A stretch of 63,704 nt of DNA, the filler included, from Mycoplasmatota bacterium (GTDB taxonomy: Bacteria > Bacillota_I > Bacilli_A > RF39 > UBA660), in assembly GCA_012727915.1 (NCBI GenBank). It is 12 parts of 12 records of this genome, joined end to end, with 100 filler letters (N's around TTAATTAATTAA, not from the genome) between each part and the next. Parts side by side here need not be neighbours in the genome. Positions count along the whole stretch, not along the records: positions 57,236 to 63,704 come from JAAYGD010000031.1; 11 more parts are not named here. One strand, given 5' to 3'. This document shows positions 12,396 to 61,775 of the stretch, in pieces. Made by a program: the position numbers and the translations under genes. A model generated the notes under the pieces. It did no database searches. It had not been told where the DNA came from and was given only the letters and a program-made list of their open reading frames with translations. The first letter of the stretch is position 1, and each line of letters begins with the position of its first letter.

Positions 12396-15300
12396 ATGAG
12401 AGAATCTATGTGGGGAATATTTATTATTGTAATTGGTGCTGTAGGCATTATAGCAATAAACTTATTCCAAAGATTAACAGTAACAGATGCAAATACATAT
12501 GTGTTAATGAAAGAATCAACTAAAGCAGCAATGTATGACTCGATTGATATTGCTTATTTTAGAAATACTGGAAACGTTAAAATTATAGAAGAAAAATTTG
12601 TAGAAAATTTTACTAGAAGATTCGCAGAATCAGCTGTTATTAATACAAATTATAAAATAGTAGTACATGATATAGTAGAGTATCCTCCAAAGGTTAGTTT
12701 AAGTATATTGACAGATCTTGATGATATGAAGAATAATGAATATAAGGTTTTACAAACAATAGATTCAATATTTGAAACTGTATATTCAAGAGCTGAGTTT
12801 TATGATAGATTTGGAGTTCATTCTGAAGAATGGTTTCCAGGAAGTCAAATATGGGATGGCACACCTATTGATCCTGTTGAAGAAAATTTTTGTAAAAATG
12901 CAAAAACTGATATTGATGAATGTATATCTGGAGATTTACAATTTTTAAGATGGGAAGAATTAGAAAGAACAGTTCTTCAAATTTGTGATACTGAATTAGG
13001 TAAGTTAGGACCTAAAGATAGAGATGCATTTTATCAAGAATGTATATGTGGAAAATGGTCTGAAGAAAAATTTAAAACAATTAATAGTGGAAGACCTAGA
13101 ATAAAAGATAGTGTTGCAACATATACATGGCATTTTACAGAAGAAGGTCCAGTTAATGATATAGATGAAACTGTTACAGACAAAATAATTGGAGCAGTAT
13201 GTTTAAGAGATTTAAAAATATTAAAAAAAGATGATTTACCAAGAACTAACTTGGGAGGTATTGAATGTGGCCCTGATGGTGTAGTTGTAATGGTTGGTCA
13301 GTCTATAAAATTATATCCAAGATATATTCCAAATAACGCTGTAAATAGAAATTTAAATTGGCAAAAAGTAAGTGGAGCAAGTCATCTTAACTTAATACCG
13401 CTTAGTCAATTATATTTCCCTTATCCTCAAAAAGATACTATTACAGTTTTGGGAGTTTCTAAAGGGAATACTGTAGTAAGCGCAGTACCAGTAGATAATC
13501 CTTCTGGTATTAAAGAGGCAACCTGTTTAGTGAAAGTTTTGGATAAACCGGATTTTTCTTGTCCACCTTCAAAACAAATACTTGTTGGTTCGACTTTTTG
13601 GCCAACAATAATTAAGGGAAAAGACTTTCCTGTAGATTATACATTAACATATGATGTTTTTAATAGGACATTGGCTTCATATGATTCTTCAACAGATTTA
13701 ATAACTGGATTAAATCCAGGAAGTACAAATTATATAGCCACTGTAACAATTGATGGAAAATCTTATTCTGAACTTTGTCCATTTGAAGTAACAGAAATAA
13801 TACCGGCCACAGCTAAAGCTAGCCCTACTTGCCATCCGTATACAATTATTATAGACACAATTCAAAATTCTGAATCGGCATCTTTTCTAAATCCTAGCAA
13901 AAAATCAGTATCGAATTATTCATTATTTAATACTGCTTATTTAAATATTAATTCAAGTACAGGTCTTATGACAGTTAAAAACAGACCGCAAAGTGATAGA
14001 TATTTAAGCTTTAGAGTAACGTTTAATGATAGTACATATTTGGATTGTCCAGTGATGTTGGCGGGGACAGTCCCTCCACCAACTGGCGAATGTACTGTTG
14101 GAGAGTTAATACCATTATGGGATCAATCATACATTGATGTAAAATCAGTGTGTTTAATTACAAAAGAACATAATTTTATACTTGCACAACTTCAAGCTTC
14201 TAATTCAGTAATGCATTTACCTATAAAAGAGTGTGGAAGAACAGGAACTATAAGTGGTTGCAAAGGATCTTGGCATACAACTACCTATTCATATACTGGA
14301 GAAGCAAATCTATTTTTTATAAATTATAATGTAAGATTCAATCCGATATATTCTTATTCAGATTGGCCAAAAGCAACACTACCATGTTCAGGAGTTCATA
14401 CCCAAGGTAATATTGATTTGGTTTCAAAATATTCTGCCCCTCGATCAGTACTTTTTAGCAAAACAACCGCATATAATCAAAATTATTTTTGTCAGATGTT
14501 TCCTATTATCGGAGATCCAAATGCATACTTTCTTGCTGATTATAGCTTTCCTACTGAAATAGTACCCGGTCTTGAAGGATCAGATAGAATTGTATATCAT
14601 GTTATGGGCGGACCTGAAGCTAAAATGCCCACTACAAGTTGTAAAAAAATAACTGGGCTTGGTAGTCTAGAAAAAAAAGATATATGGACTTGGAAATATG
14701 TTGCGCCGGAGCCTTATCCCGCAGGAGGTGGTAGCTTTACTTTTGAGTGTTCAACTAAAGAAGACCCATTATTGACAAAGACAGGCACAATAAAATTAAA
14801 TAACATAGATTGTGGATTGTATTCTCTTGAAGTAACTCCGGATCAAGTTTGGGCTTTGCCTTCTAAACAAAGTGGAACAGCAAAATTGGTAGTAGATGAT
14901 AATCCAAAATTAGATGTTGAAAACGAATTTGTTTCAATATGGTCTACTTCGGGTTTAGTAACAATAGATGGCAATAGTAATACGGCTACTTCAAGGAATA
15001 TAGATGCAAGTGGAGCAGGAAGTGGATATGCAACAATTTATGGGCAAAGACAGGCCTATGGAGCGTGTGCTAAATCACCTATCCTAAAATATAGTTTATA
15101 TGCATGCAAAACAGCAGAATATTTTTGCCCTGAAGTTTTATATTCACATTTAGATGGGAATATATGCTATTCTTCGGATATAGAAGAAGCCATATGTGAT
15201 TCTGGAAAAGGGGGGACACAAATTTTGTATAATAACAATTGTTATAATAAAACGAGTTTACCGGTTGCAACAAAAAGCGATCGATATTGTAAAGTGGGTA

Positions 15301-15917
15301 CTAAAGTTTGTTTTGATGGAGATTGCAATGAAGAAATATGTATATATGATGGAATAGCTAGATCAACTGGAAAATGCGATACATACTCTGAAAGTTTTAG
15401 TAGTGGATCATGTACAAACTCGGGTTCATACGGAGATGCAACTTATAAAACATGTAGATACGCATATAGACAAAAAGCGATATCAAGTTCTGGCACAAAT
15501 ACAAGCAATTATGTTTATAGCAGTTCTAAAGAAGCAATGGCTGCATGCAAATTGAACGTTAAAATTGGATATGCTTGTGAAGATACACCGACAAGAACAT
15601 ACACGTATACTTGTACAAGTTCTACAACTAGCGATTGTCCGGCCACTCATCCTTGGGTAACTAGCACTACGTGTTATAAAACAACAGAATTAACAGATGG
15701 CACGTATTCTTGCTCCTCTGGAACTTTAGTAGCAACTAACAGATGTGTAACATCGAGTTCTTCAACAGCTGTTCCTAAATTATGCCCTGATCCTGCTGAA
15801 TATGTTAAAATAAATGAAACCGATACATTTTGTGTGCATTTATATGATACCGAATTAGCACATTTAACTTGCCCTGGATATGGTTCATCATCGAGCGGAG
15901 GTGGATTAACCAAATAG
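12396..15917 (+). CDS. Large surface protein: DUF5411-like N-terminal domain, Ig-like repeats, Cys-rich C-terminal repeats
   Basis: N-terminal TM then KESTKAAMYDSID...EKFVENFTRRFAES...PPKVS; Big_2-like VMVGQSIKL..P.NAVNRNLNW; repeated C-x(7-15)-C units. Confidence 0.75.
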   Translation: MRESMWGIFIIVIGAVGIIAINLFQRLTVTDANTYVLMKESTKAAMYDSIDIAYFRNTGNVKIIEEKFVENFTRRFAESAVINTNYKIVVHDIVEYPPKVSLSILTDLDDMKNNEYKVLQTIDSIFETVYSRAEFYDRFGVHSEEWFPGSQIWDGTPIDPVEENFCKNAKTDIDECISGDLQFLRWEELERTVLQICDTELGKLGPKDRDAFYQECICGKWSEEKFKTINSGRPRIKDSVATYTWHFTEEGPVNDIDETVTDKIIGAVCLRDLKILKKDDLPRTNLGGIECGPDGVVVMVGQSIKLYPRYIPNNAVNRNLNWQKVSGASHLNLIPLSQLYFPYPQKDTITVLGVSKGNTVVSAVPVDNPSGIKEATCLVKVLDKPDFSCPPSKQILVGSTFWPTIIKGKDFPVDYTLTYDVFNRTLASYDSSTDLITGLNPGSTNYIATVTIDGKSYSELCPFEVTEIIPATAKASPTCHPYTIIIDTIQNSESASFLNPSKKSVSNYSLFNTAYLNINSSTGLMTVKNRPQSDRYLSFRVTFNDSTYLDCPVMLAGTVPPPTGECTVGELIPLWDQSYIDVKSVCLITKEHNFILAQLQASNSVMHLPIKECGRTGTISGCKGSWHTTTYSYTGEANLFFINYNVRFNPIYSYSDWPKATLPCSGVHTQGNIDLVSKYSAPRSVLFSKTTAYNQNYFCQMFPIIGDPNAYFLADYSFPTEIVPGLEGSDRIVYHVMGGPEAKMPTTSCKKITGLGSLEKKDIWTWKYVAPEPYPAGGGSFTFECSTKEDPLLTKTGTIKLNNIDCGLYSLEVTPDQVWALPSKQSGTAKLVVDDNPKLDVENEFVSIWSTSGLVTIDGNSNTATSRNIDASGAGSGYATIYGQRQAYGACAKSPILKYSLYACKTAEYFCPEVLYSHLDGNICYSSDIEEAICDSGKGGTQILYNNNCYNKTSLPVATKSDRYCKVGTKVCFDGDCNEEICIYDGIARSTGKCDTYSESFSSGSCTNSGSYGDATYKTCRYAYRQKAISSSGTNTSNYVYSSSKEAMAACKLNVKIGYACEDTPTRTYTYTCTSSTTSDCPATHPWVTSTTCYKTTELTDGTYSCSSGTLVATNRCVTSSSSTAVPKLCPDPAEYVKINETDTFCVHLYDTELAHLTCPGYGSSSSGGGLTK

Positions 15918-15951
15918 TATATTATAATTATAATATAGCATATGATATTTA

Positions 15952-15980
15952 TTGACAATAAATATATGATAAACTATAAT
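15952..15980 (+). promoter_or_regulatory. Sigma-A type promoter
   Basis: TTGACA-17 nt-TATAAT before the G-rich RBS of 16004. Confidence 0.8.
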
Positions 15981-16003
15981 AATGTTTAAGTTGTGGGGGG
16001 ATT

Positions 16004-17344
16004 ATGAAAATAAACAAAAAAATTTCTTATATTTTATCTGGAATATTAGCTTTATCCGGAGTTAATATTCCTTCTTCTATTGCAGAATCAAATACTAAAG
16101 AGATTAATCAAATAGATGAGAAATATGTTGTTGCTTCTTATCCAAATGTTTTAAATTTGTCCTCAGATAAAATAGATAGATTAACTGAAGGCTCATTTAA
16201 TCCGACTATCGATAAATTAGAAGGAATATTATGGATTTGTTTAAAAACAAATGATAAAAAAACTTTATTGTTAGCTGATTATCATCAAATATTTTATGAT
16301 TCTACAGAAGGCCCTTTAGTTCAAGGTGTAAATAACGATTCGCTTGAAAATAATGAAAAATATTTTCTAGATAAAAAACAAACTCTAGAAGATATGAGTA
16401 GATACTTATCTTTGACTAAGTTTCAAGATTATATATTAGTTAATGGATATGTAATTTTAGATTTATTTAACCCAAGAAATTTGATAGGCATATATGATAA
16501 TGAAAAATTTTATCATAATAGAAATTTTTTTGATAAAAATGAAGAAATTGAACTTGTTTTTTTTACTGGTGATATAAATGAACTTGCAAATCTTATTTCA
16601 ATTGATTTAAGTAAATATAATTTGCCGGAAAGAATTAAAAAAAATATGGAAGACGGCAGTACAAAAATAAGTTTAAAAGATGTATATGATTTATATATGG
16701 CAATAGTTCCCTATGAATACTTACCTACACTAACACAAAGAAAATTTAACATTAATCCTACTGTACCAATATTTAAGGATGAAATATTAGAAAAAAACAT
16801 TAATGAAAAAATAGAAGAATTAGGATATAATATTTTGCCCACCAAATCTGGAGAAACTAACTTTTTATTTTATTATTTGGATTTTAAAACTTTGTATTAT
16901 CTTGATTTTTATACTAGGGAAAAAATAGCAAAGTATGGTAATACTGATTTTAACAAAGAATATTTGAAAAAACTAGATGTTAGTGATGATTTTTATAAAG
17001 AAGATTCTAATGGCATATTTAATTATTTAAAAATAATTTCTAACGACTTTGCATTTTTTGTAGATGAATACTTGCCTGGTTTGGATTATTTGTTCACTCT
17101 TTCTTTTACTTATGGAGATTTTGTGGATTTCTATCAAAAGATACCTTTGGATCAACAGATAGATTATAGCTTTTATGATTTTAGTAAATCGCCTATTATT
17201 GATCAGTATGAAGAATTGCCTAAACCTGCTAGTTGTATTCCATATATTGATTATGAAAATAATACATTGTATGCAATTCCAAAAACAGGTAGAGATAATG
17301 AAATAATTAAACAATTAGTTATTAAAAATAAAGAGAACTCATAA
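16004..17344 (+). CDS. Hypothetical exported protein
   Basis: 446-aa ORF with own promoter, RBS and N-terminal hydrophobic segment; no family recognised. Confidence 0.75.
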   Translation: MKINKKISYILSGILALSGVNIPSSIAESNTKEINQIDEKYVVASYPNVLNLSSDKIDRLTEGSFNPTIDKLEGILWICLKTNDKKTLLLADYHQIFYDSTEGPLVQGVNNDSLENNEKYFLDKKQTLEDMSRYLSLTKFQDYILVNGYVILDLFNPRNLIGIYDNEKFYHNRNFFDKNEEIELVFFTGDINELANLISIDLSKYNLPERIKKNMEDGSTKISLKDVYDLYMAIVPYEYLPTLTQRKFNINPTVPIFKDEILEKNINEKIEELGYNILPTKSGETNFLFYYLDFKTLYYLDFYTREKIAKYGNTDFNKEYLKKLDVSDDFYKEDSNGIFNYLKIISNDFAFFVDEYLPGLDYLFTLSFTYGDFVDFYQKIPLDQQIDYSFYDFSKSPIIDQYEELPKPASCIPYIDYENNTLYAIPKTGRDNEIIKQLVIKNKENS

Positions 17345-23043: not shown

Positions 23044-23275
23044 TAAGAACATTAGATCAAAAGGTTTAGTATCATCAATATTAGATGAAATACCAGGTAT
23101 AGGAGAAAAAACAAAAAAAGAAATATTAACAAAATATAAAGATATAGGTATTTTAAAAGAACTTACTCTAGAAGAATTAAATAAAAACTTTAATAAAAAT
23201 ATTGCAATTAATATTTATGAATATTTTAAAAATAACAATTAAAAGTTATTTTTTTTTAATTGACTAAAATCAATT
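23044..23275 (+). repeat. Second, slightly divergent copy of the uvrC 3' end and downstream DNA
   Basis: Matches 63338-63570 with 4 substitutions and a 1-nt indel. Confidence 0.95.
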
Positions 23276-42454: not shown

Positions 42455-44586
42455 TTGGAGTACATAATGAATGATATTATTATTGAACAAATGAGAATTG
42501 CTTTGGGAATTTCAACAAATCAGATAGAAACTGTTTTGAAATTGTTAGAAGATGGAAACACTATACCTTTTATAGCAAGGTATAGAAAAGAAATGACTAG
42601 GAATTTGGATGAAGAGCAAATAAAAAGTATAAATGAGGTTTATGAATACCAAGTTAATTTGATGAATAAAAAAGAAAATATAATTAAGTTAATAGATGAA
42701 AAAGGTATGCTTACTGAAGAAATAAAACAAAATATTTTGAATTGTCAAAAATTAGTAGAAGTAGAAGATATATATAGGCCTTATAAAGAGAAGAAAAACA
42801 CTAAGGCTTCAGAAGCTATTAAAAAGGATTAGAACCTTTAGCAAAATATATAATGACTTTTCCTAAGGAAATAGGTAATTTAAATAATTATTTAAATGAA
42901 AACATTAAAAGTGAAATAGACGCTATTCAAGGTGCTAAAGATATTATTGCAGAATGGATTAGTGATAATTCTATATATAGAAAATGGATTAGAAGTTATA
43001 TTTATTCTAACGGTTTAATTTCTTCAAAAAAGAAAAAAGATTCAAAAGATGAGGAAAGAGTATATGAAATGTATTATGATTATAAGGAATCTTTGAAGAC
43101 AATAAAACCTCATCGAATATTAGCGGTTAATAGAGGAGAAAAAGAAAAAGTTTTAAATATAAAAATTGATGTTGAAGATGATAAAATATTAGAATATTTA
43201 TATAAAGAAAATATAAAAATTGAAGGTTTAATTTCTTCAAAATATGTAAAAGAAGCAATTGATGATGGATATAAAAGATTGATATTTCCTAGTATTGAAA
43301 GAGAAATAAGAAGTGAATTAACTGATGAAGCAAATGAACAAGCAATAAAAATATTTTCCAATAATTTAGAAAACTTATTGCTTCAACCACCAATGAAAGA
43401 AAAAGTTGTATTAGGATTAGATCCTGCTTTTAGAACTGGTTGTAAACTCGCAGTTATAGATAAAACCGGAAAATTTTTAGAAAAAAGTGTCATTTATCCA
43501 CATGAACCCATTAATGATATTGAAAAATCAACTGAAGAGTTAAATAGATTGGTAGATAAGTATAAAGTTGATATTATTTCTATAGGTAATGGTACTGCTT
43601 CTAGAGAATCAGAAAAATTTGTTTCAAATTATATTCAAGATCATAAAAAGGATACAAAATATATAATAGTAAATGAAGCTGGAGCTTCAGTATACTCTGC
43701 TAGTAAACTTGCAATAGATGAGTTTCCCAATTTACATGTTGAAGAAAGAAGCGCAATAAGTATAGCGAGAAGATTACAAGATCCTCTCTCTGAACTTGTT
43801 AAAGTAGAACCAAAAAGTATTGGTGTTGGTCAATATCAACACGATGTACCACAAAATAGATTAAATGATTCTTTAGATTTTGTTGTAAGTAAAGCTGTAA
43901 ATTTAGTGGGAGTTAATATTAATACTGCTAGCCAATCTTTGTTAAAATATGTATCAGGATTAAATAAAAAAAATATTGAAAATATTATAGAATATAGAAA
44001 TAAAAAAGGTAAAATAGAGTCTAGGAAAGAATTAGAAAGAATACTTAATGATAAGATATATCAACAATCTATTGGATTTATGAGAATAATGGATGGTACA
44101 AATCCTTTAGATAAAACAAGTATTCATCCTGAAAGTTACTCTATGGTAACAGAGTTATTAAGCAAATTAGAATTACAAAAAGAAGACTTGGGATCATCTA
44201 TTTTAAAAGAAAAACTAGATAAAATTAATAGAAATGAATATAAAATCGATGAATATACCTTTAATGATATTATTTCTTCTTTAAAACAACCATTAAGGGA
44301 TTTAAGAGATGATTTTAAAACACCAATATTAAAAAGTAATATTTTAACTATTCAAGATTTAACTTTAGGTATGAAACTACAAGGAACAGTTAGAAACGTT
44401 GTAGATTTTGGTTTATTTATAGATATTGGTTTAAAAAATGATGGTTTAGCGCACATTTCAAAATTAAGTAATAAATATATTAAACATCCAAGTGATTTAT
44501 TTAATGTTGGAGATATCGTTGATTGTTATGTAGATGAAATTTATTTGGATAAAAATAAAGTAAGTTTATCACTAATAGAAAAATAA
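42455..44586 (+). pseudogene. tex: Tex (YhgF) RNA-binding transcription accessory protein with a 1-nt frameshift near 42821-42825
   Basis: TIPFIARYRKE in ORF 42455-42832; GLDPAFRTGCK, IGNGTASRE, IGVGQYQHD and S1 in ORF 42853-44586; one extra A restores KKGLEPLAK. Confidence 0.85.
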
Positions 44587-44673: not shown

Positions 44674-44852
44674 CTTAAATGAAGATATTAAAAAAAGTAT
44701 AATTTCATTTTTATTTAATACAATAATGTTATTATATTTGTGAAAGCTTTGGTTTCAAATCTTTTCACTTTAAAGATAATTAATTTTAATATTAGAAAAT
44801 ACACATATAAACAAAAAAATGATATAATTAAAATAATAATAAAGAGGTGTTT

Positions 44853-51697: not shown

Positions 51698-51897
51698 ATT
51701 ATAATTAAAGGAAACCATATGAAATAAGGCTAAAACTTGCTACTAGCAAGTTGTTGTAGTACACGCTTATCCTGTTCTAAAATAATGAAATGTATGTGCT
51801 AAAAATTTAGATAAATCGAAGCAAAAAGTTATCTAAAAAATTACTACAATTTGTGACCAAAAATGTTATAATAATAATAATAGGAAGGGGTGTAGTA

Positions 51898-52890
51898 ATG
51901 AAAAAGTACAAAATAGCGAGTCTGTTTTCGGGAATCGGCGGAATAGATTTAGGGTTTTTAAAAGCTGGCGCTGATTCAATTTGGGCAAATGAAATAGATC
52001 CATATTGTGCTGTTACATTTAATGCAAATCACCCTAATATTAATTTAGTTGTCGATGACATATGTAATATAAAAGGAAAAGATATACCCGCAATCGATAT
52101 ACTTACAGGAGGATTTCCTTGTCAACCTTTTTCAATAGCAGGTTATAGAAAAGGGTTTGAAGACGAAAGAGGAAATATGTTCTTTCAAATTATGAGAATA
52201 GTTAATGAATTAGAAGAAAATAATAATAAACCACGAATAATATTCTTAGAAAATGTAAAAAACTTAAAAACACATGACAAAGGTAATACTTTTGTAGTTA
52301 TTAAGAGAGTGCTAGAAGAACATGGCTATATTGTTGAAGAAAAGATAATGAATACAAGCGAGTACGGAAATTTACCTCAAAATAGAGAAAGAATATTTAT
52401 TTTAGGATTTTTGAATGCAAAAGATCAAAAAAACTTTGAATGGCCAAACAAAATAAATCTGACGACATCTATTGAAGATGTTGTTGACTGGAATGCAAAA
52501 GTCAAATCAAAATATATTTATGAAAATGATAAAAAGTGCTATCCATTATTAAAGGAAAATATTAATGAAACAAAAACAATATATCAATATAGGAGAGTCT
52601 ATGTTAGGGCAAATAAAAGCGGAGTATGTCCAACATTAACTGCAAATATGGGAATGGGAGGACACAACGTTCCTTTGATACTTAATAATGATGGAAAAAT
52701 AAGAAAGTTATTACCAATAGAATGTTTAAGGTTGCAAGGTTTTCCTAGAAATTTTATTGTTCCAAGCGAGTTAAGTGATTCAAGAATTTATAAGCAAGTA
52801 GGGAATGCAGTTTCTGTAAGTGTCATTAAAAGAGTTGCCGAAAAAATAATTGAAGCAATGAGGAAGACGGATAAAAATGCAGATTATTAA
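51898..52890 (+). CDS. DNA cytosine-C5 methyltransferase of a type II R-M system
   Basis: FSGIGG, GFPCQPFS, ENVKNL, QNRERIF, TRD CPTLTANMG.GGHNVP, GNAV. Confidence 0.96.
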   Translation: MKKYKIASLFSGIGGIDLGFLKAGADSIWANEIDPYCAVTFNANHPNINLVVDDICNIKGKDIPAIDILTGGFPCQPFSIAGYRKGFEDERGNMFFQIMRIVNELEENNNKPRIIFLENVKNLKTHDKGNTFVVIKRVLEEHGYIVEEKIMNTSEYGNLPQNRERIFILGFLNAKDQKNFEWPNKINLTTSIEDVVDWNAKVKSKYIYENDKKCYPLLKENINETKTIYQYRRVYVRANKSGVCPTLTANMGMGGHNVPLILNNDGKIRKLLPIECLRLQGFPRNFIVPSELSDSRIYKQVGNAVSVSVIKRVAEKIIEAMRKTDKNADY

Positions 52891-53977
52891 ATACGAAAAA
52901 GATCTATTAAAAAAATATTTTGAAGATTTACAGGTTGTAGGAATGATATCTGTTCTGTTTTCAGATAGTTCTACTCCTATGTTATATTATAGAGTTCCAG
53001 AAAACTTATACTGTAATGCTTTGGGTGCAGAAAATTTAGCTAGGTCTGATGTACCCGCTGATGCGAAAATCGGAGAAATTGGTGTAGGGATAAAAACTTT
53101 TTTGGAAGGAAATAAAAAAACTTATCAAAAAATTGAAGAATTTAATAATCAACATTCTTTATATGAAAAGTTGGAACCCCTCGAAAAAATAAAAAAAATA
53201 TCACAACTTAGAAATTTAAGATTAGAATTTACAATGAACACATATAAAATAAAAGAAATGATATTTCATTGTATAGTTCGTAATAAAAGCGGTTTTCATT
53301 TTTATGAAGAATCAATGGATTTCATTGATATTAATAAAATAAAAATACAAAAGGTTAATAGAAGTACTATTGATTTTACCGATGGAAAACACAATTATAA
53401 ATTTAATATTACTAAAAGCACATTATATAAGCAGTTTATAATAAAAAATTATTTTGCTAGTATTGATGTGCTAATAGCTAACAATCCACTGGCATTAATA
53501 CAAAGACCTGAAATTGAGTCGTTAATTACATTTAGCGAAAAGGAATCTATAATTTTGCCTCTTTATTCAATAAAAAATGATGAAAAAATAATTCCTGAAA
53601 AAAGCGGTCTTAATTTATGGAATGCAGGAGGAAGAAGTAGAGACCCGAACGAAGTCTATATTCCTTTTCCGTCAAAATTACGAAAAGAATTTAGTGATTT
53701 TTTTCCTAAAAGAGACCAATGTTTTGAAGTTAATTTACCTAGTGGTAGAGTTATATCAATGAAAGTATGTCAGGATGATGGCAAAGCTATTATGTCTAAT
53801 CCAAACAAAGATCTAGGAATATGGATTTTAAGGGAAGTTCTGAATTTAGAAGAAAACGAATTGTTGACTTACGAAATGCTTTTAGAGTTAGGTATTGATA
53901 GTGTTGAATTTGAAAAAATCGACGATAAATATAAACTTAATTTTAAAACAAGTGAACAAGAAGAGGATAGTGAGTAG
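52877..53977 (+). CDS. Restriction endonuclease with NgoFVII-family-like C-terminal domain
   Basis: ADAK...GIKTF putative PD-(D/E)xK centre; KSGLNLWNAGGR.RDPNEVYIP, CQDDGKAIMSNPNK.LG.W; overlaps the MTase. Confidence 0.82.
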   Translation: MQIIKYEKDLLKKYFEDLQVVGMISVLFSDSSTPMLYYRVPENLYCNALGAENLARSDVPADAKIGEIGVGIKTFLEGNKKTYQKIEEFNNQHSLYEKLEPLEKIKKISQLRNLRLEFTMNTYKIKEMIFHCIVRNKSGFHFYEESMDFIDINKIKIQKVNRSTIDFTDGKHNYKFNITKSTLYKQFIIKNYFASIDVLIANNPLALIQRPEIESLITFSEKESIILPLYSIKNDEKIIPEKSGLNLWNAGGRSRDPNEVYIPFPSKLRKEFSDFFPKRDQCFEVNLPSGRVISMKVCQDDGKAIMSNPNKDLGIWILREVLNLEENELLTYEMLLELGIDSVEFEKIDDKYKLNFKTSEQEEDSE

Positions 53978-54865: not shown

Positions 54866-56693
54866 AGAAAAATCTATATTAAATATTATTGACAAGTATT
54901 CTATTTCTAAAGAAGATTTCTATAATAATAAAGATAACTATTTTAATCAAATTGTTAACACTGCACCAAATTTAAATGTTGTTTTGTTCTTACTTACGAA
55001 TTTAACTCCAAAAAATCTTAGAAAATATCTACTTAATGAAATAAATAAAACTGATAATAGTAAGTTTATTTTGGTTGTTTTAAAATACTTGGAATATTTA
55101 GCAAAATCTGAAAATACCACATTAAAAGTATTATTAGAAGAAGAAAAATATGAAGATTTAATAAAAAACTCATTAATAAATTTTAAAAAATCGATACTTA
55201 ATCTTTATATTATAAGTAAAAAAGAAAACAACGAATTAAATGATTCAATAAATAAACTATTGTTTTTGGAAGACACTAGTGTTTTAGGAGTTGATAAAAT
55301 TACTTCTATAATGTTAGAAGACATATTATCTAAGATGGGTAAACAAGATAATGTCGGTTTAAATTTTGTTTTAGATATTAATAATGCCGATAAATTAAGA
55401 GTATATATAGAAAAATTTTTGAATAATATGGTCTATTTAAAAAGCGTTAGCAATTCAATGAATATCGAATCGAAAGAATCTTCCTCTAATGATATTTCCA
55501 ATCATATAAATAAAGAGAAGGAATCGGACTCAAAAAACGATTTGATTACTCAAAATATTTTAATGATGGATAATATTGATTCAATTTTAAACATATTAAT
55601 ATCATTTGACTCTAAAGATTTGCAATATTATTTAAAACAACTAGAATTTTATAAAGAAAACAATTCATTTATACTATATATTTATAAATTTTTAGAACAT
55701 CTAGCAAAATCAGAAAATACTTTGTTAATTAATTTAATAAGCGATGATAAATACCTAGAATTAATAAAAAACTCATTAACAGATTTTAAAAAATCAATAA
55801 ATAGTTTAAATATATTGATTCAAAAAGATAACGCAATTATTAATGAGGAAATAAATAAGCTCTTTTTTGTGGAAAACCCCAAAACTTATGGAGTTGATAA
55901 AATTACTATTGAAGTTATTAAAGAATTATTATCAAATTCTACAAATACAGGAAGTTCTGATTTAAATAACTTGTTAGATTATAAAAATGCTGAAGTACTA
56001 AAAAAATTATTAACAAAAGTTGTTGAAGGCATTACAACCAAAACAATGTTTGTAACTAAAAAAGCCAAAGTTACTGATTCATCAAATACTAGAGTTGATT
56101 CTATAAAACAGATATTAAATAGCTCAAGTAATCATGATGATATATTAACAAATAAAATAAAAAAATATATAGGTTTTATGATAAAGGATTCGGGAATTAG
56201 TTATGACGAGTATGTAAATAGTAACGAATTCAATAGTTTTATTAGCATAAATTTTGAAAATTCAAATTTAATTGCGCTTATATATAGTTTGTTGGAAAAA
56301 GAATTGGATTATTCTTTTAACATTGACTTGAAAATAAATGATCTGTTTATTACAAAAAATAATATAGACAGCGAAACTAATAACTCCATCAATATAATTA
56401 TCAACAAGATAATCAATGAAAATAATATCCTATTTGTTTTAGAATTATTAGTTAATTTAAAAAACGAAACATATAAAGATGTGTTAAAACAAGTTATAAT
56501 CAATAAAGAAAAAATTCAATTTGACAGAATATATAATTATATTGATGAGTATTTAAAGAGACCAAAACAAATCACAATGGAAGAATATATTGAAACAAAT
56601 CACAATGAAAGAGCTATAATGTTTTTCTTGTTAAAATTATTGATAATGTTGTTATTAGTAATATTATTATCAAAAAAAGAAGAGGTGTTATAG
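54866..56693 (+). CDS. Large helical-repeat hypothetical protein, 5'-truncated
   Basis: Frame open from contig start; two clear repeats LE.LAKSENT...KY..LIKNSL..FKKSI...INKL.F.E....GVDKIT about 200 aa apart. Confidence 0.8.
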
Positions 56694-57008
56694 ATGAATA
56701 GTAATTTAAAAGTTAATTTTACAGAAATAGAAAAAAGCATTCAAAATATTAACAATAGTTTAGTAGAAGTTAATACTTTAGTTAACGATTTGAACAAAGC
56801 AATTTTAAGTATAGACGAAGGTTGGAATGACAAGCTATATAAATCTTCAGAAAACTTTAAAACATCTTTAAAAGAAAAGGTTGTTGACAAAATAGTGGCA
56901 AATAATTTATTGCTCACATCTTTAATTGAAGAGGTTCAAGCTGCAATGATTATTTATATAGAAAACGAAACTAAATGGCAAAACTTAATAAACAATACAA
57001 ATTTATAG
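56694..57008 (+). CDS. WXG100-like protein with degenerate WND motif
   Basis: 104 aa, two amphipathic helices with central Trp (SIDEGWND), C-terminal YIENE (YxxxE); GAGGTG RBS. Confidence 0.7.
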   Translation: MNSNLKVNFTEIEKSIQNINNSLVEVNTLVNDLNKAILSIDEGWNDKLYKSSENFKTSLKEKVVDKIVANNLLLTSLIEEVQAAMIIYIENETKWQNLINNTNL

Positions 57009-57135: not shown

Positions 57136-57334
57136 NNNNNNNNNNNNNNNNNNNNNNNNNNNNNNNNNNNNNNNNNNNNTTAATTAATTAANNNNNNNNN
57201 NNNNNNNNNNNNNNNNNNNNNNNNNNNNNNNNNNNAACAAGATTAAAACCATAATAAAACATGTAAACACATGTTTTTTTTATTGAATAAAATAATGTAT
57301 AGTGTTACTATCAATATATATAATAGAGGATAGT

Positions 57335-60300
57335 ATGAATGTAGAAATTGATTTTTTTAATAAATTAATACAAGAATCAAGTAATATAGATAATTTACTA
57401 TCTGTTTCTTTAAATGATATAGATGATGTTATATATAGAGATTTAGATAGTAGAGTATCAAATGTATCTATTAATGAAGATCTTTATAGTATAAAATCAG
57501 ATATAAAAAAATTAAAAGATAATACAAGCGATATAAAAAGTAATAATCAATATTCATATAATATATGGATTGATAATATAAATGAAATACCTACTGAAAT
57601 AAATATGTTAACAGATAAAGATGGAGTACCGTGGATATTAAAAAACTTAAAAGTTTCTGAAAATGAAGAAGCTGGAATAAGCTATAATGCAATGGTTGAA
57701 AATACTCTAAAAGATTTACAAGATAGAATAAAAGAAATTGATAAAACATTAGATGAAGAATACTCTTTTGATAAGGAATATAAAATAGGAGATTTTACAA
57801 AATTATATGGGTTATTAGGAATATATAATTCTATGAGTGATCCGGCAAATATGTATTATATAAATCCATCAGAAGATGGTAGTGCAAATGTAATGGGTTT
57901 CCAAAATGTTGAAAATATATATGGTGTACTTACTAGTCTTCTAATTAACTTGGAAACTTTAAAGAATTTTGATAAGGATTCTGAATTTTATCAATCAGAA
58001 ATGATGAGATTAAAAAGTTTGACAGGAACAACAGATATAGATTCGCTAATTACAACAGTAAAAGGTTTTTTAACTGAAATATCACCAATATATGAAGCAC
58101 ATAATAAATTGAATGGAGAAAGAGCACAAATATTGTCAATATTATATGACAAAAAAATATATGATATGGTAAGTCCATTTGAAACGGTAGTAAATAACGA
58201 TGATTTTGAAAACTATTCAAAAGAAATAATATTTAAGGATAATTATATATGGTTATTAGATAAAGATTTAGAAGTATATAATAAATTACCAGACAATATA
58301 AAAGAAATGTATCCACTAGAAGAAGGAAACTATGTAAGTGCATTTTTATTTAATTTTATTAATTATGAAACAACAGAAGGAATACAAGTGAATCCATTCT
58401 TTTTAAAGGATGAATATATATCGACTAGATTTCAAGATTTAAAATATTTAAATGAAGAACAAAAGAAAATATTTTATTATCAATATAGAAAAAATGGAGT
58501 TGAAAGTGCAAATGATTATTTAGTTGCGCTAGAAGACTATATAAATAGGGCAAAGGGATATGAATCATACGAAAATTATAGAAATTATATGATTTCAGAT
58601 GCTGCGGGAGTGCAAAAGTTTTTCGTATCATTTGGAAAAGGTTTAGAAGATGGATTTGAAGGATCAATAGAAGGATTTATAAATGCATTTTATTCAGATG
58701 GAATAAAATCAGTTAATCAATATGAACAAATGTATATATTAAATTTTTTAGCAACAGAGTATACAGAAGAAGGATTAAAGGCACAAGAAGAACTATTAAA
58801 TCAAGGAAAAATAAGTGATGAAGAATACAATAATTATAAAGAAATTTATATAAAAGTAAACGAATCAAACGAAACACAAGGAATAAGAAAAATACTATAT
58901 AAAGGGTCATATCAAGTAGGAACTGGAATAGGATATATGGCACCAGCAATAGCATTAAATTTATCAGTACCAGGATTAGGAACAGGATATTTATTTTTAT
59001 CACAATTTGGAAGCAAAATAGAACAATCAAATCAAACATATGGAGAATTAACTATAAATGCATATGCAAATTCATTTTTATCAGCATTAGCATTAACAGC
59101 ATTAGAAAGGTTAGGAGGATTACCAGGGTTTGCAGATGAAAGTGCAGGAATATTAAAAAGATTGTTTAACGAAGGTTGGACAGAGTTTGTACAACAATAT
59201 GTAGATAGAGGATTTGAATCAGTACATTATAAAACAAAGTATGATATAGAAGATGTAACTTTAGAGGCATTAGAATCAGCAATATTTGGATTTATAACAG
59301 CGGGTGTATTAGATATAGGACCAAAAGCAATAACTGGAACAGCTATGGTATTAAATGTAATGGGTCAAGAAGTACAATTAAATTTTCAACAAATGTTAAA
59401 GTTATATGATGCATATAAAATACCCGATATAAATTTAAGAAAAGAAGCACTTATTAATTTGGCTAGTCCTTTGGGAATTGTAAATGATGGTGGTATATTT
59501 AATGATTTTTTAAAACACTTAAATAGACAAGAAATGGAAACATATAAATCAATTAATAATTTAATTTTAGATACAAATTTGGAAAATATTCGCTTATCTG
59601 ATCTTGAAACTGTTATGAAGAGATTTTCTGCTAAAGAACTTGCATTATTAATTAAATTGAATCCTAATAATGTAAATAGAATTATAAAATTAGGAAGTGT
59701 TGAATCTCTTGCAACATTGCTATTAGATGGAACTATTGATTATGAAAAAAATAAGTATCTTTATCAAAAAAGATTTAGAACAATGAACAATGTAGAGTTT
59801 TTAAAATTTTTAGAGCTAAGCATGAAGGGAGACTTTGGAGTTGATCAAGGAGTAATAAGACGCAAAAATATTTTCTTTTTTAAGAATTTAAGAAATAAAT
59901 CTAAAGTTATTAAATTAATAGATTTAAAAGGTTATGAAGATTATTTATTAAATGTCGAACAATTAAGTAGAGATAAAGCAACTTCAATTATAAAAAGTAT
60001 AGTAGCAGAAGAAGTTTTTTATAATCAAGAATTAGAGTATCTTATTGATTATTTAACATATAAAAAAATTGATTTAAAAAAATATGATAAAATAATAAAT
60101 AATTTTGAAAGAATAAAAAAAGTCGAATTTACTTTTGTAGAAGAAAAGTTAATTAATATGGGTTTTAATTCTATTGAAGCACACAAAATATTAAACTCAA
60201 TGGATACTGTAATGGGGCTATGTTCTTATGCGAATATTGCTAATGCAATAATTTTGCATTTTAAAAATGATATCGAAGGATTTAAGGCTAACTTTGGTTA

Positions 60301-61036
60301 TGATATGATAAAAACATATAATCAAAATACATATAAATTAAATAGTGTGGAATTAATGTTGGATATGTTTTTATTTTTCAATAGTGATATTTGTGGCCAA
60401 ACTTTATCAAGTGGTAATCCAATTTTTTCTTTAAAAGATTCTAAACCAAAAATTATTGATTTATTATCCGAAAAAAACATTAAGGGATTAAGCTTTTCTA
60501 GTGGTACTATTGATACAGATTTAATAAATGCTTTTTTTGGATACCATAATAGTTTATTGAAAATTAATTGTACTCCATTTTTTCCTTCTACCTCTTTAAA
60601 AAACCTACATAATACTTTTAATTTATTTGATTCTGTCACTATTGCTGATAGATTAAAAAAATTTCAGGAAGCAGGTTATTTGTTATCTTTAGGAATTATA
60701 AGACGTAAAGAGCTTCCGATAAATTTTAATAGAACTGAAGGATCAAAATTCTTATCGACGTCAGAATGGGAAGAGAATGATGCGCATGCTGTACATGTTA
60801 TAGGTATAGAGCCTGATAAATTAGATGTATCTTCTTGGGGGAAAGAGTTACTTGTTCTTTTATCTGAATTATCTTTTGAAGAAAGAAATGAATATATTGG
60901 TCCAAATGGTGATATAATAAAAACGGGACCATTTGGCAAGATTAACGGATTTACAATTCCAAGTGATTATAGATTGCATAGAATTGTTCCTAGAAATGCA
61001 AATATGAATTTGTTATGGATGGATGAAATATTATGA
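57335..61036 (+). CDS. Putative polymorphic toxin: helical N-terminus, Gly-rich hydrophobic region, C-terminal papain-like domain
   Basis: GAGGA RBS before ATG 57335; GLCSYANIANAI, HAVHVIG, DVSSWG; ATGA overlap with next gene. Confidence 0.7.
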   Translation: MNVEIDFFNKLIQESSNIDNLLSVSLNDIDDVIYRDLDSRVSNVSINEDLYSIKSDIKKLKDNTSDIKSNNQYSYNIWIDNINEIPTEINMLTDKDGVPWILKNLKVSENEEAGISYNAMVENTLKDLQDRIKEIDKTLDEEYSFDKEYKIGDFTKLYGLLGIYNSMSDPANMYYINPSEDGSANVMGFQNVENIYGVLTSLLINLETLKNFDKDSEFYQSEMMRLKSLTGTTDIDSLITTVKGFLTEISPIYEAHNKLNGERAQILSILYDKKIYDMVSPFETVVNNDDFENYSKEIIFKDNYIWLLDKDLEVYNKLPDNIKEMYPLEEGNYVSAFLFNFINYETTEGIQVNPFFLKDEYISTRFQDLKYLNEEQKKIFYYQYRKNGVESANDYLVALEDYINRAKGYESYENYRNYMISDAAGVQKFFVSFGKGLEDGFEGSIEGFINAFYSDGIKSVNQYEQMYILNFLATEYTEEGLKAQEELLNQGKISDEEYNNYKEIYIKVNESNETQGIRKILYKGSYQVGTGIGYMAPAIALNLSVPGLGTGYLFLSQFGSKIEQSNQTYGELTINAYANSFLSALALTALERLGGLPGFADESAGILKRLFNEGWTEFVQQYVDRGFESVHYKTKYDIEDVTLEALESAIFGFITAGVLDIGPKAITGTAMVLNVMGQEVQLNFQQMLKLYDAYKIPDINLRKEALINLASPLGIVNDGGIFNDFLKHLNRQEMETYKSINNLILDTNLENIRLSDLETVMKRFSAKELALLIKLNPNNVNRIIKLGSVESLATLLLDGTIDYEKNKYLYQKRFRTMNNVEFLKFLELSMKGDFGVDQGVIRRKNIFFFKNLRNKSKVIKLIDLKGYEDYLLNVEQLSRDKATSIIKSIVAEEVFYNQELEYLIDYLTYKKIDLKKYDKIINNFERIKKVEFTFVEEKLINMGFNSIEAHKILNSMDTVMGLCSYANIANAIILHFKNDIEGFKANFGYDMIKTYNQNTYKLNSVELMLDMFLFFNSDICGQTLSSGNPIFSLKDSKPKIIDLLSEKNIKGLSFSSGTIDTDLINAFFGYHNSLLKINCTPFFPSTSLKNLHNTFNLFDSVTIADRLKKFQEAGYLLSLGIIRRKELPINFNRTEGSKFLSTSEWEENDAHAVHVIGIEPDKLDVSSWGKELLVLLSELSFEERNEYIGPNGDIIKTGPFGKINGFTIPSDYRLHRIVPRNANMNLLWMDEIL

Positions 61037-61734
61037 AAAAAGAAATAATAATAAATGCAAATAATTTAAATACGAGATTACCTAATAGTTTTGGTGATTA
61101 TTTTAATAGTTTATCTTCTTCAGGTAAAGAAGATTATATTATTATGTATAAGGCTTGTACAAACTTGTTAATTAAATATTTAAAATATAGCTTTAATCTT
61201 GATGAATATGAAAAAAGTATGATGGATAATAAAATTAAACCTATTGAAGAAACAGAAATGGATATATATCAATATTTATCCAGCAATGAATTAAAATATT
61301 TTTATATCCGAAATAATTTAAATATTGAATTATTAGATAATAATGATAAAGAATTATTGCTTAGTATAAAAGATGGTTCAATATCAAATGAAAAAAATAG
61401 TGTTTTTATTGAGAATAATTATGAAAGATTAATAAAAAATCAAATAAATGATGAGAGTCATACTATTTTGGGCCCTAATTCTTCAAATTATATTGTTCCT
61501 GTAAACACATTAGTACTTGGATTTAGATATGATGAATATATCAAAAGACCAAATCAAACAGATGAAGAATGGTCCAAAGAGAGAGAAAAAATAGAAGGAA
61601 ATAATGAGTTATTATTTTATTACATGAAAAAAACTTTTGAAAATACTATTCATAAACCTATCGAAATAATTAAATATGACGAATTTAGTGTTAATAAAAA
61701 AGATGAAATAGAAGATAAAGTTAATTCAAAGTAA
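61033..61734 (+). CDS. Putative immunity protein
   Basis: Soluble acidic 233 aa, 4-bp overlap with the toxin-like gene; KYFYIRNN and LVLGFRYD motifs. Confidence 0.55.
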   Translation: MKKEIIINANNLNTRLPNSFGDYFNSLSSSGKEDYIIMYKACTNLLIKYLKYSFNLDEYEKSMMDNKIKPIEETEMDIYQYLSSNELKYFYIRNNLNIELLDNNDKELLLSIKDGSISNEKNSVFIENNYERLIKNQINDESHTILGPNSSNYIVPVNTLVLGFRYDEYIKRPNQTDEEWSKEREKIEGNNELLFYYMKKTFENTIHKPIEIIKYDEFSVNKKDEIEDKVNSK

Positions 61735-61775
61735 TTGATATATGCTTTATCTTTTTTAATGTATAATACAAATAG

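Follow-up and report, generated by a model that had tools for sequence, protein, structure and literature searches.

Two overlapping genes precede uvrC in a Mycoplasmatota bacterium of the RF39 lineage (assembly GCA_012727915.1): do they encode a polymorphic toxin with a papain-like warhead and its immunity protein? We addressed this question in a window of 63,704 nt, in which 12 contigs are joined by stop-codon linkers (N44-TTAATTAATTAA-N44); all coordinates refer to this joined window. Contig C12 (57236-63704) carries the locus, with the toxin open reading frame (ORF) starting after its first 99 nt. We consider it probable that the pair encodes an antibacterial polymorphic toxin, a cysteine enzyme linked to type VII secretion and aimed at a cytoplasmic target, together with the matching immunity protein. 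It is well supported that the pair is real and intact and belongs to a known kind of system, and that the domain represents an unnamed family. The pair comprises the following features.

57335..61036, + strand: predicted polymorphic toxin, 1233 aa; ATG at 57335, stop at 61036, no internal stop
57335..57673, + strand: N-terminal ~113 aa, presumed export/trafficking region, common to paralogues with another C-terminus
58427..59374, + strand: central scaffold of Gly/Ala-rich helices (residues ~365-680), presumed translocation segment
59834..59851, + strand: conserved [YF]G-x-[DN]-Q-G motif at F834-G839, with Gln838, on the N-terminal side of Cys963
60122..61033, + strand: papain-like Cys-His domain, residues ~930-1233, with Cys963, His1151 and S1166-S-W-G (60830-60841)
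61033..61734, + strand: soluble acidic partner, 233 aa, predicted cognate immunity protein of an unnamed family; overlaps the toxin stop by ATGA

A papain-like domain and its partner gene

An earlier note on this DNA had described an ORF of about 1230 aa whose stop is overlapped by a gene for a soluble, acidic 233-aa protein. Both genes are present as described. The larger one is preceded by a ribosome-binding site (AGAGGA, 57325-57330) and its product is 74% identical to protein P0001 across the full length. The partner has an isoelectric point (pI) of 5.0, 40 D/E versus 31 K/R residues and a maximum hydropathy of 0.78. The proposed catalytic motifs are likewise in place, namely GLCSY with Cys963 (TGT, 60221), AHAVHVIG with His1151 (CAT, 60785) and S-S-W-G with Ser1166 (60830) and Trp1168 (60836).

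A profile of the domain matches 1464 protein clusters (50% identity), 1129 of them at E<=1e-10; the cluster-level statistics given here are based on the best 150 of the 1464 clusters, with proteins of 273-7686 aa. Across 167 full domains, the columns of Gly961, Cys963, Asp1010 and His1151 are invariant. As Cys and His are thus kept in 167/167 homologous domains, these motifs are not a chance occurrence. The W-G of S-S-W-G is retained in 98-99% of the domains, and the consensus can be written as GxCxY...GH...SSWG. At the position of the papain Asn, for which Ser had been claimed, the alignment column contains Ser in 142 and Asp in 14 of the 167 domains. No more than 30 aa follow the last domain in 131 of the 150 proteins, 32 of the 167 domains are internal, and giant proteins hold up to 5-6 copies. 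Asp at the third position is commoner in internal copies (10/32) than in terminal ones (4/135). Upstream of the Cys, we detected a further motif that is absent from the earlier note: [YF]G-x-[DN]-Q occurs in 138 of 164 domains versus 7 of 610 background windows. This region is outside the fold model, and the motif may provide an oxyanion-hole Gln or a processing site.

The AlphaFold2 model of the domain, which was built with an 86-sequence alignment, has a predicted local distance difference test score (pLDDT) of 82 and a predicted template modelling score (pTM) of 0.82; a single-sequence fold was discarded (pLDDT 33). In the model, the Cys opens a helix (H33-46, Cys34), the His opens a strand (E221-230, His222) and S-S-W-G closes the next strand (E233-238, then W239), which is a papain-type placement. 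The structural superposition spans model residues ~27-282, a range that contains the Cys and the His. The best matches found with VIA-align are IdeS/Mac-1 (Z 7.8, root mean square deviation (rmsd) 5.0, 179 aligned residues), the C1 enzyme xylellain (Z 7.8, rmsd 3.8, 160 aligned) and PeiR (Z 7.7, rmsd 3.4, 139 aligned), all at 10-14% identity. These three are stand-alone secreted enzymes and are not known to have immunity genes. Going by titles, we take 46 of the top 50 VIA rows to be papain-superfamily members, two to be unclear and two to be unrelated to it. Foldseek places IdeC/IdeS and staphopain in its top rows, the top Atlas match is 'C39-like' (0.93), and a viral fold library gave no match at E<=0.001. 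The papain-like fold that had been proposed is thus supported by the model and by its neighbours, with a structural match that is weak (best Z 7.8).

To describe the association with the partner, we used 401 genomes of the order, among which the domain was found in 18 with a single-sequence query versus 33 with a 23-row profile. The partner profile, which consists of 19 rows from genes adjoining the domain and is circular for 16 genomes, matches 27 of the 401 genomes, and 26 of these 27 also contain the domain. Among the 11 partner genomes outside the training set, 10 contain the domain. A species-level scan resulted in 29 loci, and 22 independent loci were left after seven that overlapped the training loci had been dropped. 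In these, the partner is the first gene downstream of the domain ORF in 19 cases, the second in two and absent in one, which supports a coupled partner gene. At locus L134, the partner is first downstream for one of three domain copies. The pairwise identities of domain and partner are correlated (Spearman 0.30, 26 pairs, 0/2000 permutations). Furthermore, an orphan partner gene is found in genome G220 and a decayed copy at G040:C8:7432. An Atlas search with the partner, for which the model was poor, yielded leads below 0.9 with template modelling (TM) scores below 0.3. In several loci linked to essC, a Ser/Thr kinase-like gene follows the partner (L063:10330, L068:9459, L121:8549).

Exchange of C-termini at a variable site

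The surroundings of the pair include three additional features.

57136..57235, no strand: artificial contig linker (N44-TTAATTAATTAA-N44); the sequence to its left is no true neighbour
57236..57362, + strand: repeated cassette-head element with hairpin, leader and first codons, which recurs unchanged as the final 127 nt of contigs C14 and C30
61776..63536, + strand: uvrC, bordering the variable site on its 3' side, identified by Pfam UvrC domains and genus comparison

The earlier note had recognised a polymorphic toxin layout and a position beside uvrC. The uvrC gene lies 3' of the pair, and the layout recurs in a paralogue on contig C14, in the toxin of locus L143 and in two toxins of locus L141, which keep the scaffold and differ in the C-terminus. 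Residues 1-113 of the 1233-aa protein are 68% identical to the L143 toxin, and in this region the DNA is 96% identical to C14 over 121 nt. The central block is the best-conserved part in comparison to P0001 (86-91%), and this scaffold is also found in toxins with other C-termini. Residues 1-929 are matched in 48 of the 150 top homologues, chiefly within the central block. The Gly/Ala motifs that had been pointed out in this block start at residues 529 and 613, whereas its hydrophobicity is only moderate (best 19-residue Kyte-Doolittle means 1.27, 1.26 and 1.57).

We compared the genome analysed here (G000) with G040, which is of the same genus, and with G082 and G382. In G000, the end of contig C30 contains relA, dtd, a WXG100 protein and a 138-aa gene, and C14 contains the paralogue, which is cut at its 5' end (>1209 aa, L072:3-4056), a 137-aa gene, hisS and aspS; relA, dtd, hisS and aspS are what we take these genes to be from their sequences. 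The C14 paralogue is near-identical to the 1233-aa protein at residues 65-105 and 28% identical over residues 65-716. Its C-terminus is an HExxH metallopeptidase-like domain with a weak match to the ATLF family (E 0.0015), and the small gene that follows differs from the 233-aa partner. The likely order of the locus is relA-dtd-WXG-138aa-(toxin A, partner A)-hisS-aspS-(1233-aa toxin, partner)-uvrC, for which we infer the join of C30 and C14.

In G040, aspS is directly followed by the orthologue (74% identical) and its partner, after which the contig ends with the same head element; just before uvrC on a separate contig are toxin A (L143:27-4317) and its partner, and related copies of the head element precede toxin genes. 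Toxin A with its 137-138-aa partner is located before hisS in G000 and before uvrC in G040. In G082, two toxins (L141:3662-7785 and 12584-16811) flank hisS-aspS; their central block is 31% identical over residues 252-666, and their C-termini and small partners differ and are outside Pfam. G382 contains a single 681-aa gene at the site, with no match to these proteins. Since C-termini and small genes are swapped among G000, G040 and G082, we conclude that the aspS-uvrC region is a variable cassette site. In sequencing run X7, the head element is fused to position 61758 on one contig, with only 47 letters on the shorter arm, which suggests a strain with one more cassette.

Tandem cassettes are present at L057, L058, L059, L132 and L134. 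At L126, an ADP-ribosyltransferase C-terminus is followed by an ADP-ribosylglycohydrolase-like gene and then by the partner, and in genome G147, the genes for the hydrolase and the partner lie downstream of a giant protein that contains an ADP-ribosyltransferase domain. The giants (L144, L145, L126; P0002-P0004: 5,600-7,700 aa) combine several papain-fold copies with HExxH motifs and ADP-ribosyltransferase domains and are followed by strings of immunity-like genes. Judged by these sequence features, that is, a common scaffold with exchangeable C-termini, a coupled small gene, tandem cassettes and orphans, this is probably a polymorphic toxin system.

Two further genes were observed. A third scaffold paralogue (L074:1727-4610, at the end of G000:C15; 609+ aa) is cut by the contig end and follows three small helical genes. 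In G082, a zeta-toxin-like gene precedes uvrC.

Secretion context, proposed mode of action and alternatives

Export together with the WXG100 proteins of the window had been suggested before, and one part of this suggestion holds. The source genome encodes EssC on contig C75 (TIGR03928 score 1010 versus a cutoff of 778), and homologues of the toxin adjoin essC, a yukD-like gene, WXG100-like genes and DUF4176, with the toxin followed by the partner. Among the 22 independent loci, essC is found in nine and DUF4176 alone in two more. The other part does not hold: the WXG100-like gene at 56694, whose Pfam match (E 0.0011) misses the cutoff, is no real neighbour because the window consists of joined contigs, and the one at 44847 is also on another contig. 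A WXG100 gene above the Pfam cutoff is located on C30 and was assigned to the toxin locus by assembly overlap and synteny with G040. The true type VII locus of the source genome is the region of C75 and 54866-57008, where a 569-aa ORF of the window completes, at the 3' end, a ~1,380-aa ORF from C75 (L075) that is located downstream of essC and small helical genes. As no LXG or WXG100 domain is detectable in the 1233-aa toxin, its type VII export is suggested by context, and we consider it fairly likely.

In the model that we favour, the N-terminal and central scaffold would be exported, most likely via the EssC system, aided by WXG100-like proteins whose genes are found elsewhere at the locus, and would deliver the papain-fold enzyme into the cytoplasm of a competitor. 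There, His1151 would activate Cys963 for attack on an amide bond, and the most likely outcome would be cleavage of an essential protein. In the producer, the translationally coupled 233-aa protein would bind and neutralise the domain. A cytoplasmic target is favoured over the cell wall because the partner is soluble and contains no hydrophobic stretch, and protease chemistry is likelier than that of a deamidase or an acyltransferase.

Papain-fold antibacterial toxins have been characterised recently, so far in Gram-negative type VI secretion (T6SS) and contact-dependent inhibition (CDI) systems. Cpe1-Cpi1 is a papain-like cysteine protease effector of an E. coli T6SS with its immunity protein (PMC12136450), StbD-StbI includes a C39 toxin of the Citrobacter rodentium CDI system (PDB 8SSK/8SSM) that autoprocesses (10.64898/2026.05.07.723447), and both Cpe1 and StbD cleave GyrB/ParE (PMC12136450; 10.64898/2026.05.07.723447). 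As in these systems, a delivery scaffold that ends in a papain-fold Cys-His enzyme is followed by a small immunity-type gene, and our model superimposes on StbD (8ssk/8ssm) with Z 5.9 and rmsd 3.3 over ~120 residues at 9-10% identity. In contrast to Cpe1 and StbD, the domain has ~260-300 instead of ~140 aa, Ser instead of Asp/Asn, and a Gram-positive type VII context. Predicted papain-fold domains of polymorphic toxins (Tox-PL1, Tox-PL2, Tox-PL3 and Tox-PLC39) can also be C-terminal or internal, as here, and Tox-PL1 was predicted with type VII (WXG) export and Imm35 (PMC3482391); however, their signatures are NC-H-DxQ, C-NxxH-DN and C-H-D, whereas ours is GxCxY...GH...SSWG. The domain is thus outside the C39-type families of Cpe1 and StbD and outside Tox-PL1/2. 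The gene neighbourhood resembles the LXG modules of type VIIb systems, which contain Lap helpers, DUF4176, toxin and immunity genes (PMC13492133, PMC12478183) and in which DUF4176 proteins act as toxin chaperones (PMC12478183), whereas the 1233-aa protein has no detected LXG domain.

Several observations weigh against our model. No type VII marker was found within the flanks examined (up to 7 kb) in 11 of the 22 loci, and the 1233-aa protein has no LXG or WXG100 signature in Pfam, NCBIfam or profile searches; its N-terminus did not match the WXG100 profile in a low-power comparison (probability 1%). No partner was detected in seven of the 33 domain-bearing genomes, among them G354, whose domain is almost complete, and the partner is upstream in six short forms of 255-420 aa (L018, L046, L049, L050, L051, L104). 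The correlation between domain and partner would also be given by co-inheritance alone and thus fits any two-gene cassette. At the active site, Ser replaces the canonical third triad residue Asp/Asn in most domains, and no Gln is present six residues upstream of Cys963. Finally, VIA found no match at Z 8 among 48,161 chains, and Foldseek none at E<=0.001.

The strongest alternative retains the toxin and its immunity protein and differs only in the chemistry, with a deamidase, an acyltransferase/transglutaminase or a peptidoglycan isopeptidase in place of the protease. The non-canonical third residue and the extra conserved G-x-D-Q-G motif would fit such an enzyme, as would the structural neighbours PeiR, phytochelatin synthase Alr0975 (Z 6.6), CtaG and AziU; it has also been proposed, in Zhang 2012 (PMC3482391), that papain-fold toxins may transglutaminate. 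However, Cpe1 and StbD, the nearest antibacterial toxins of this fold to have been characterised, act as proteases (PMC12136450; 10.64898/2026.05.07.723447), and the solubility of the partner speaks against a target in the cell wall. We regard this alternative as rather unlikely.

Alternatively, the domain might serve chiefly in autoprocessing, as a peptidase by which large secreted proteins are matured or parts of them released, with the partner as a chaperone or inhibitor instead of an immunity protein. Its internal copies, in which Asp is commoner, and the multiple copies in the giants would be consistent with such a role, which was proposed for internal Tox-PL1 copies (PMC3482391) and is reported for StbD (10.64898/2026.05.07.723447). 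Yet the 1233-aa protein and most homologues have no other recognisable catalytic domain, and this one comes last; it fills the slot of the metallopeptidase-like domain in the paralogue; this role is therefore improbable as the main one. Least probable is a secreted or surface peptidase with no part in antagonism, accompanied by a co-inherited regulator and used for nutrient scavenging or host-cell attachment by a possibly dependent bacterium. The reduced genome (0.87 Mb at 93.8% completeness) and some short stand-alone forms without partner might suggest it, but it fits poorly with the exchange of C-termini, the cassettes in tandem, the orphan and decayed copies of the partner gene, and the ADP-ribosyltransferase co-domains that hydrolase-like genes follow.

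Going beyond the toxin-immunity model, it is possible, though we hold this only tentatively, that the domain represents a large family, restricted to this lineage, of type VII-delivered Cys-His toxins without Asp/Asn, in which the Gln of G-x-D-Q-G may complete the site, with a new immunity fold, a non-LXG scaffold and a mobile multi-warhead arsenal, so far undescribed, in genome-reduced uncultured Bacilli. If true, type VIIb secretion of Gram-positive bacteria would gain a protease-type class of warheads, of which we found no characterised example in the literature searched. The pair differs from the Gram-negative toxins: the domain belongs to a separate, unnamed family of at least 1129 clusters at E<=1e-10, its catalytic site is unusual, the family of its partner is likewise unnamed, and the context is type VII secretion in uncultured Bacilli whose genomes measure about 1 Mb. 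Should the enzyme prove toxic, its substrate may represent a new target for antibacterials, and the partner a new inhibitor of cysteine enzymes. The family also suggests that these reduced genomes invest heavily in interbacterial conflict.

Spread of the family and the source genome

Neither protein had been recognised as a named family, in agreement with our searches: Pfam, NCBIfam and PHROGs contain no family for the toxin domain or the 233-aa partner, and PDB sequence searches returned nothing meaningful. The 1233-aa protein does not match Peptidase_C39_2 (PF13529), which is found at E<=0.01 in 3 of 86 domain members (best 8.7e-05), and no Pfam Tox-PL family is listed for any of the 86. In the literature searched, we found no published account of such an RF39 type VII/EssC toxin or of a papain protease toxin of type VII secretion, and the supplements of PMC3482391 could list the family. 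Term searches in the type VIIb secretion reviews PMC13492133 and PMC10765036 yielded no peptidase toxin, and RF39 is not mentioned in PMC11217815.

The domain was found in 0 of 388 other scored genomes of a phylum-wide sample (two were not scored). A genome scan seeded with P0052 gave 0 of 38 candidates, and a word-based homologue search with a full-length size filter detected one protein and was superseded by the hidden Markov model (HMM) search. Records with relatives are mostly titled uncultured Bacilli or Tenericutes, and a few are labelled Clostridia, Bacteroidaceae or Muribaculaceae, which are possibly mis-binned.

The source genome has 872,930 nt in 76 contigs, 25% GC and a completeness of 93.8%. 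The locus stretch is contained in 20 sequencing runs from 11 studies of digesters, landfill, wastewater, bioreactors and terrestrial samples; no RNA run is among the listed holders. Four of these runs were mapped over the stretch and cover 29-30 of 30 bins. A scan for promoters and terminators gave signals no higher than in shuffles.

Lastly, we note three observations on other parts of the window. The end of C12 overlaps the start of C5 (63338-63570 versus 23044-23275, 233 nt, 98% identical). The Tex gene at 42455-44586 appears as two ORFs of 125 and 577 aa. At 51853-53977, a C5 DNA methylase is paired with an NgoFVII-like restriction endonuclease.

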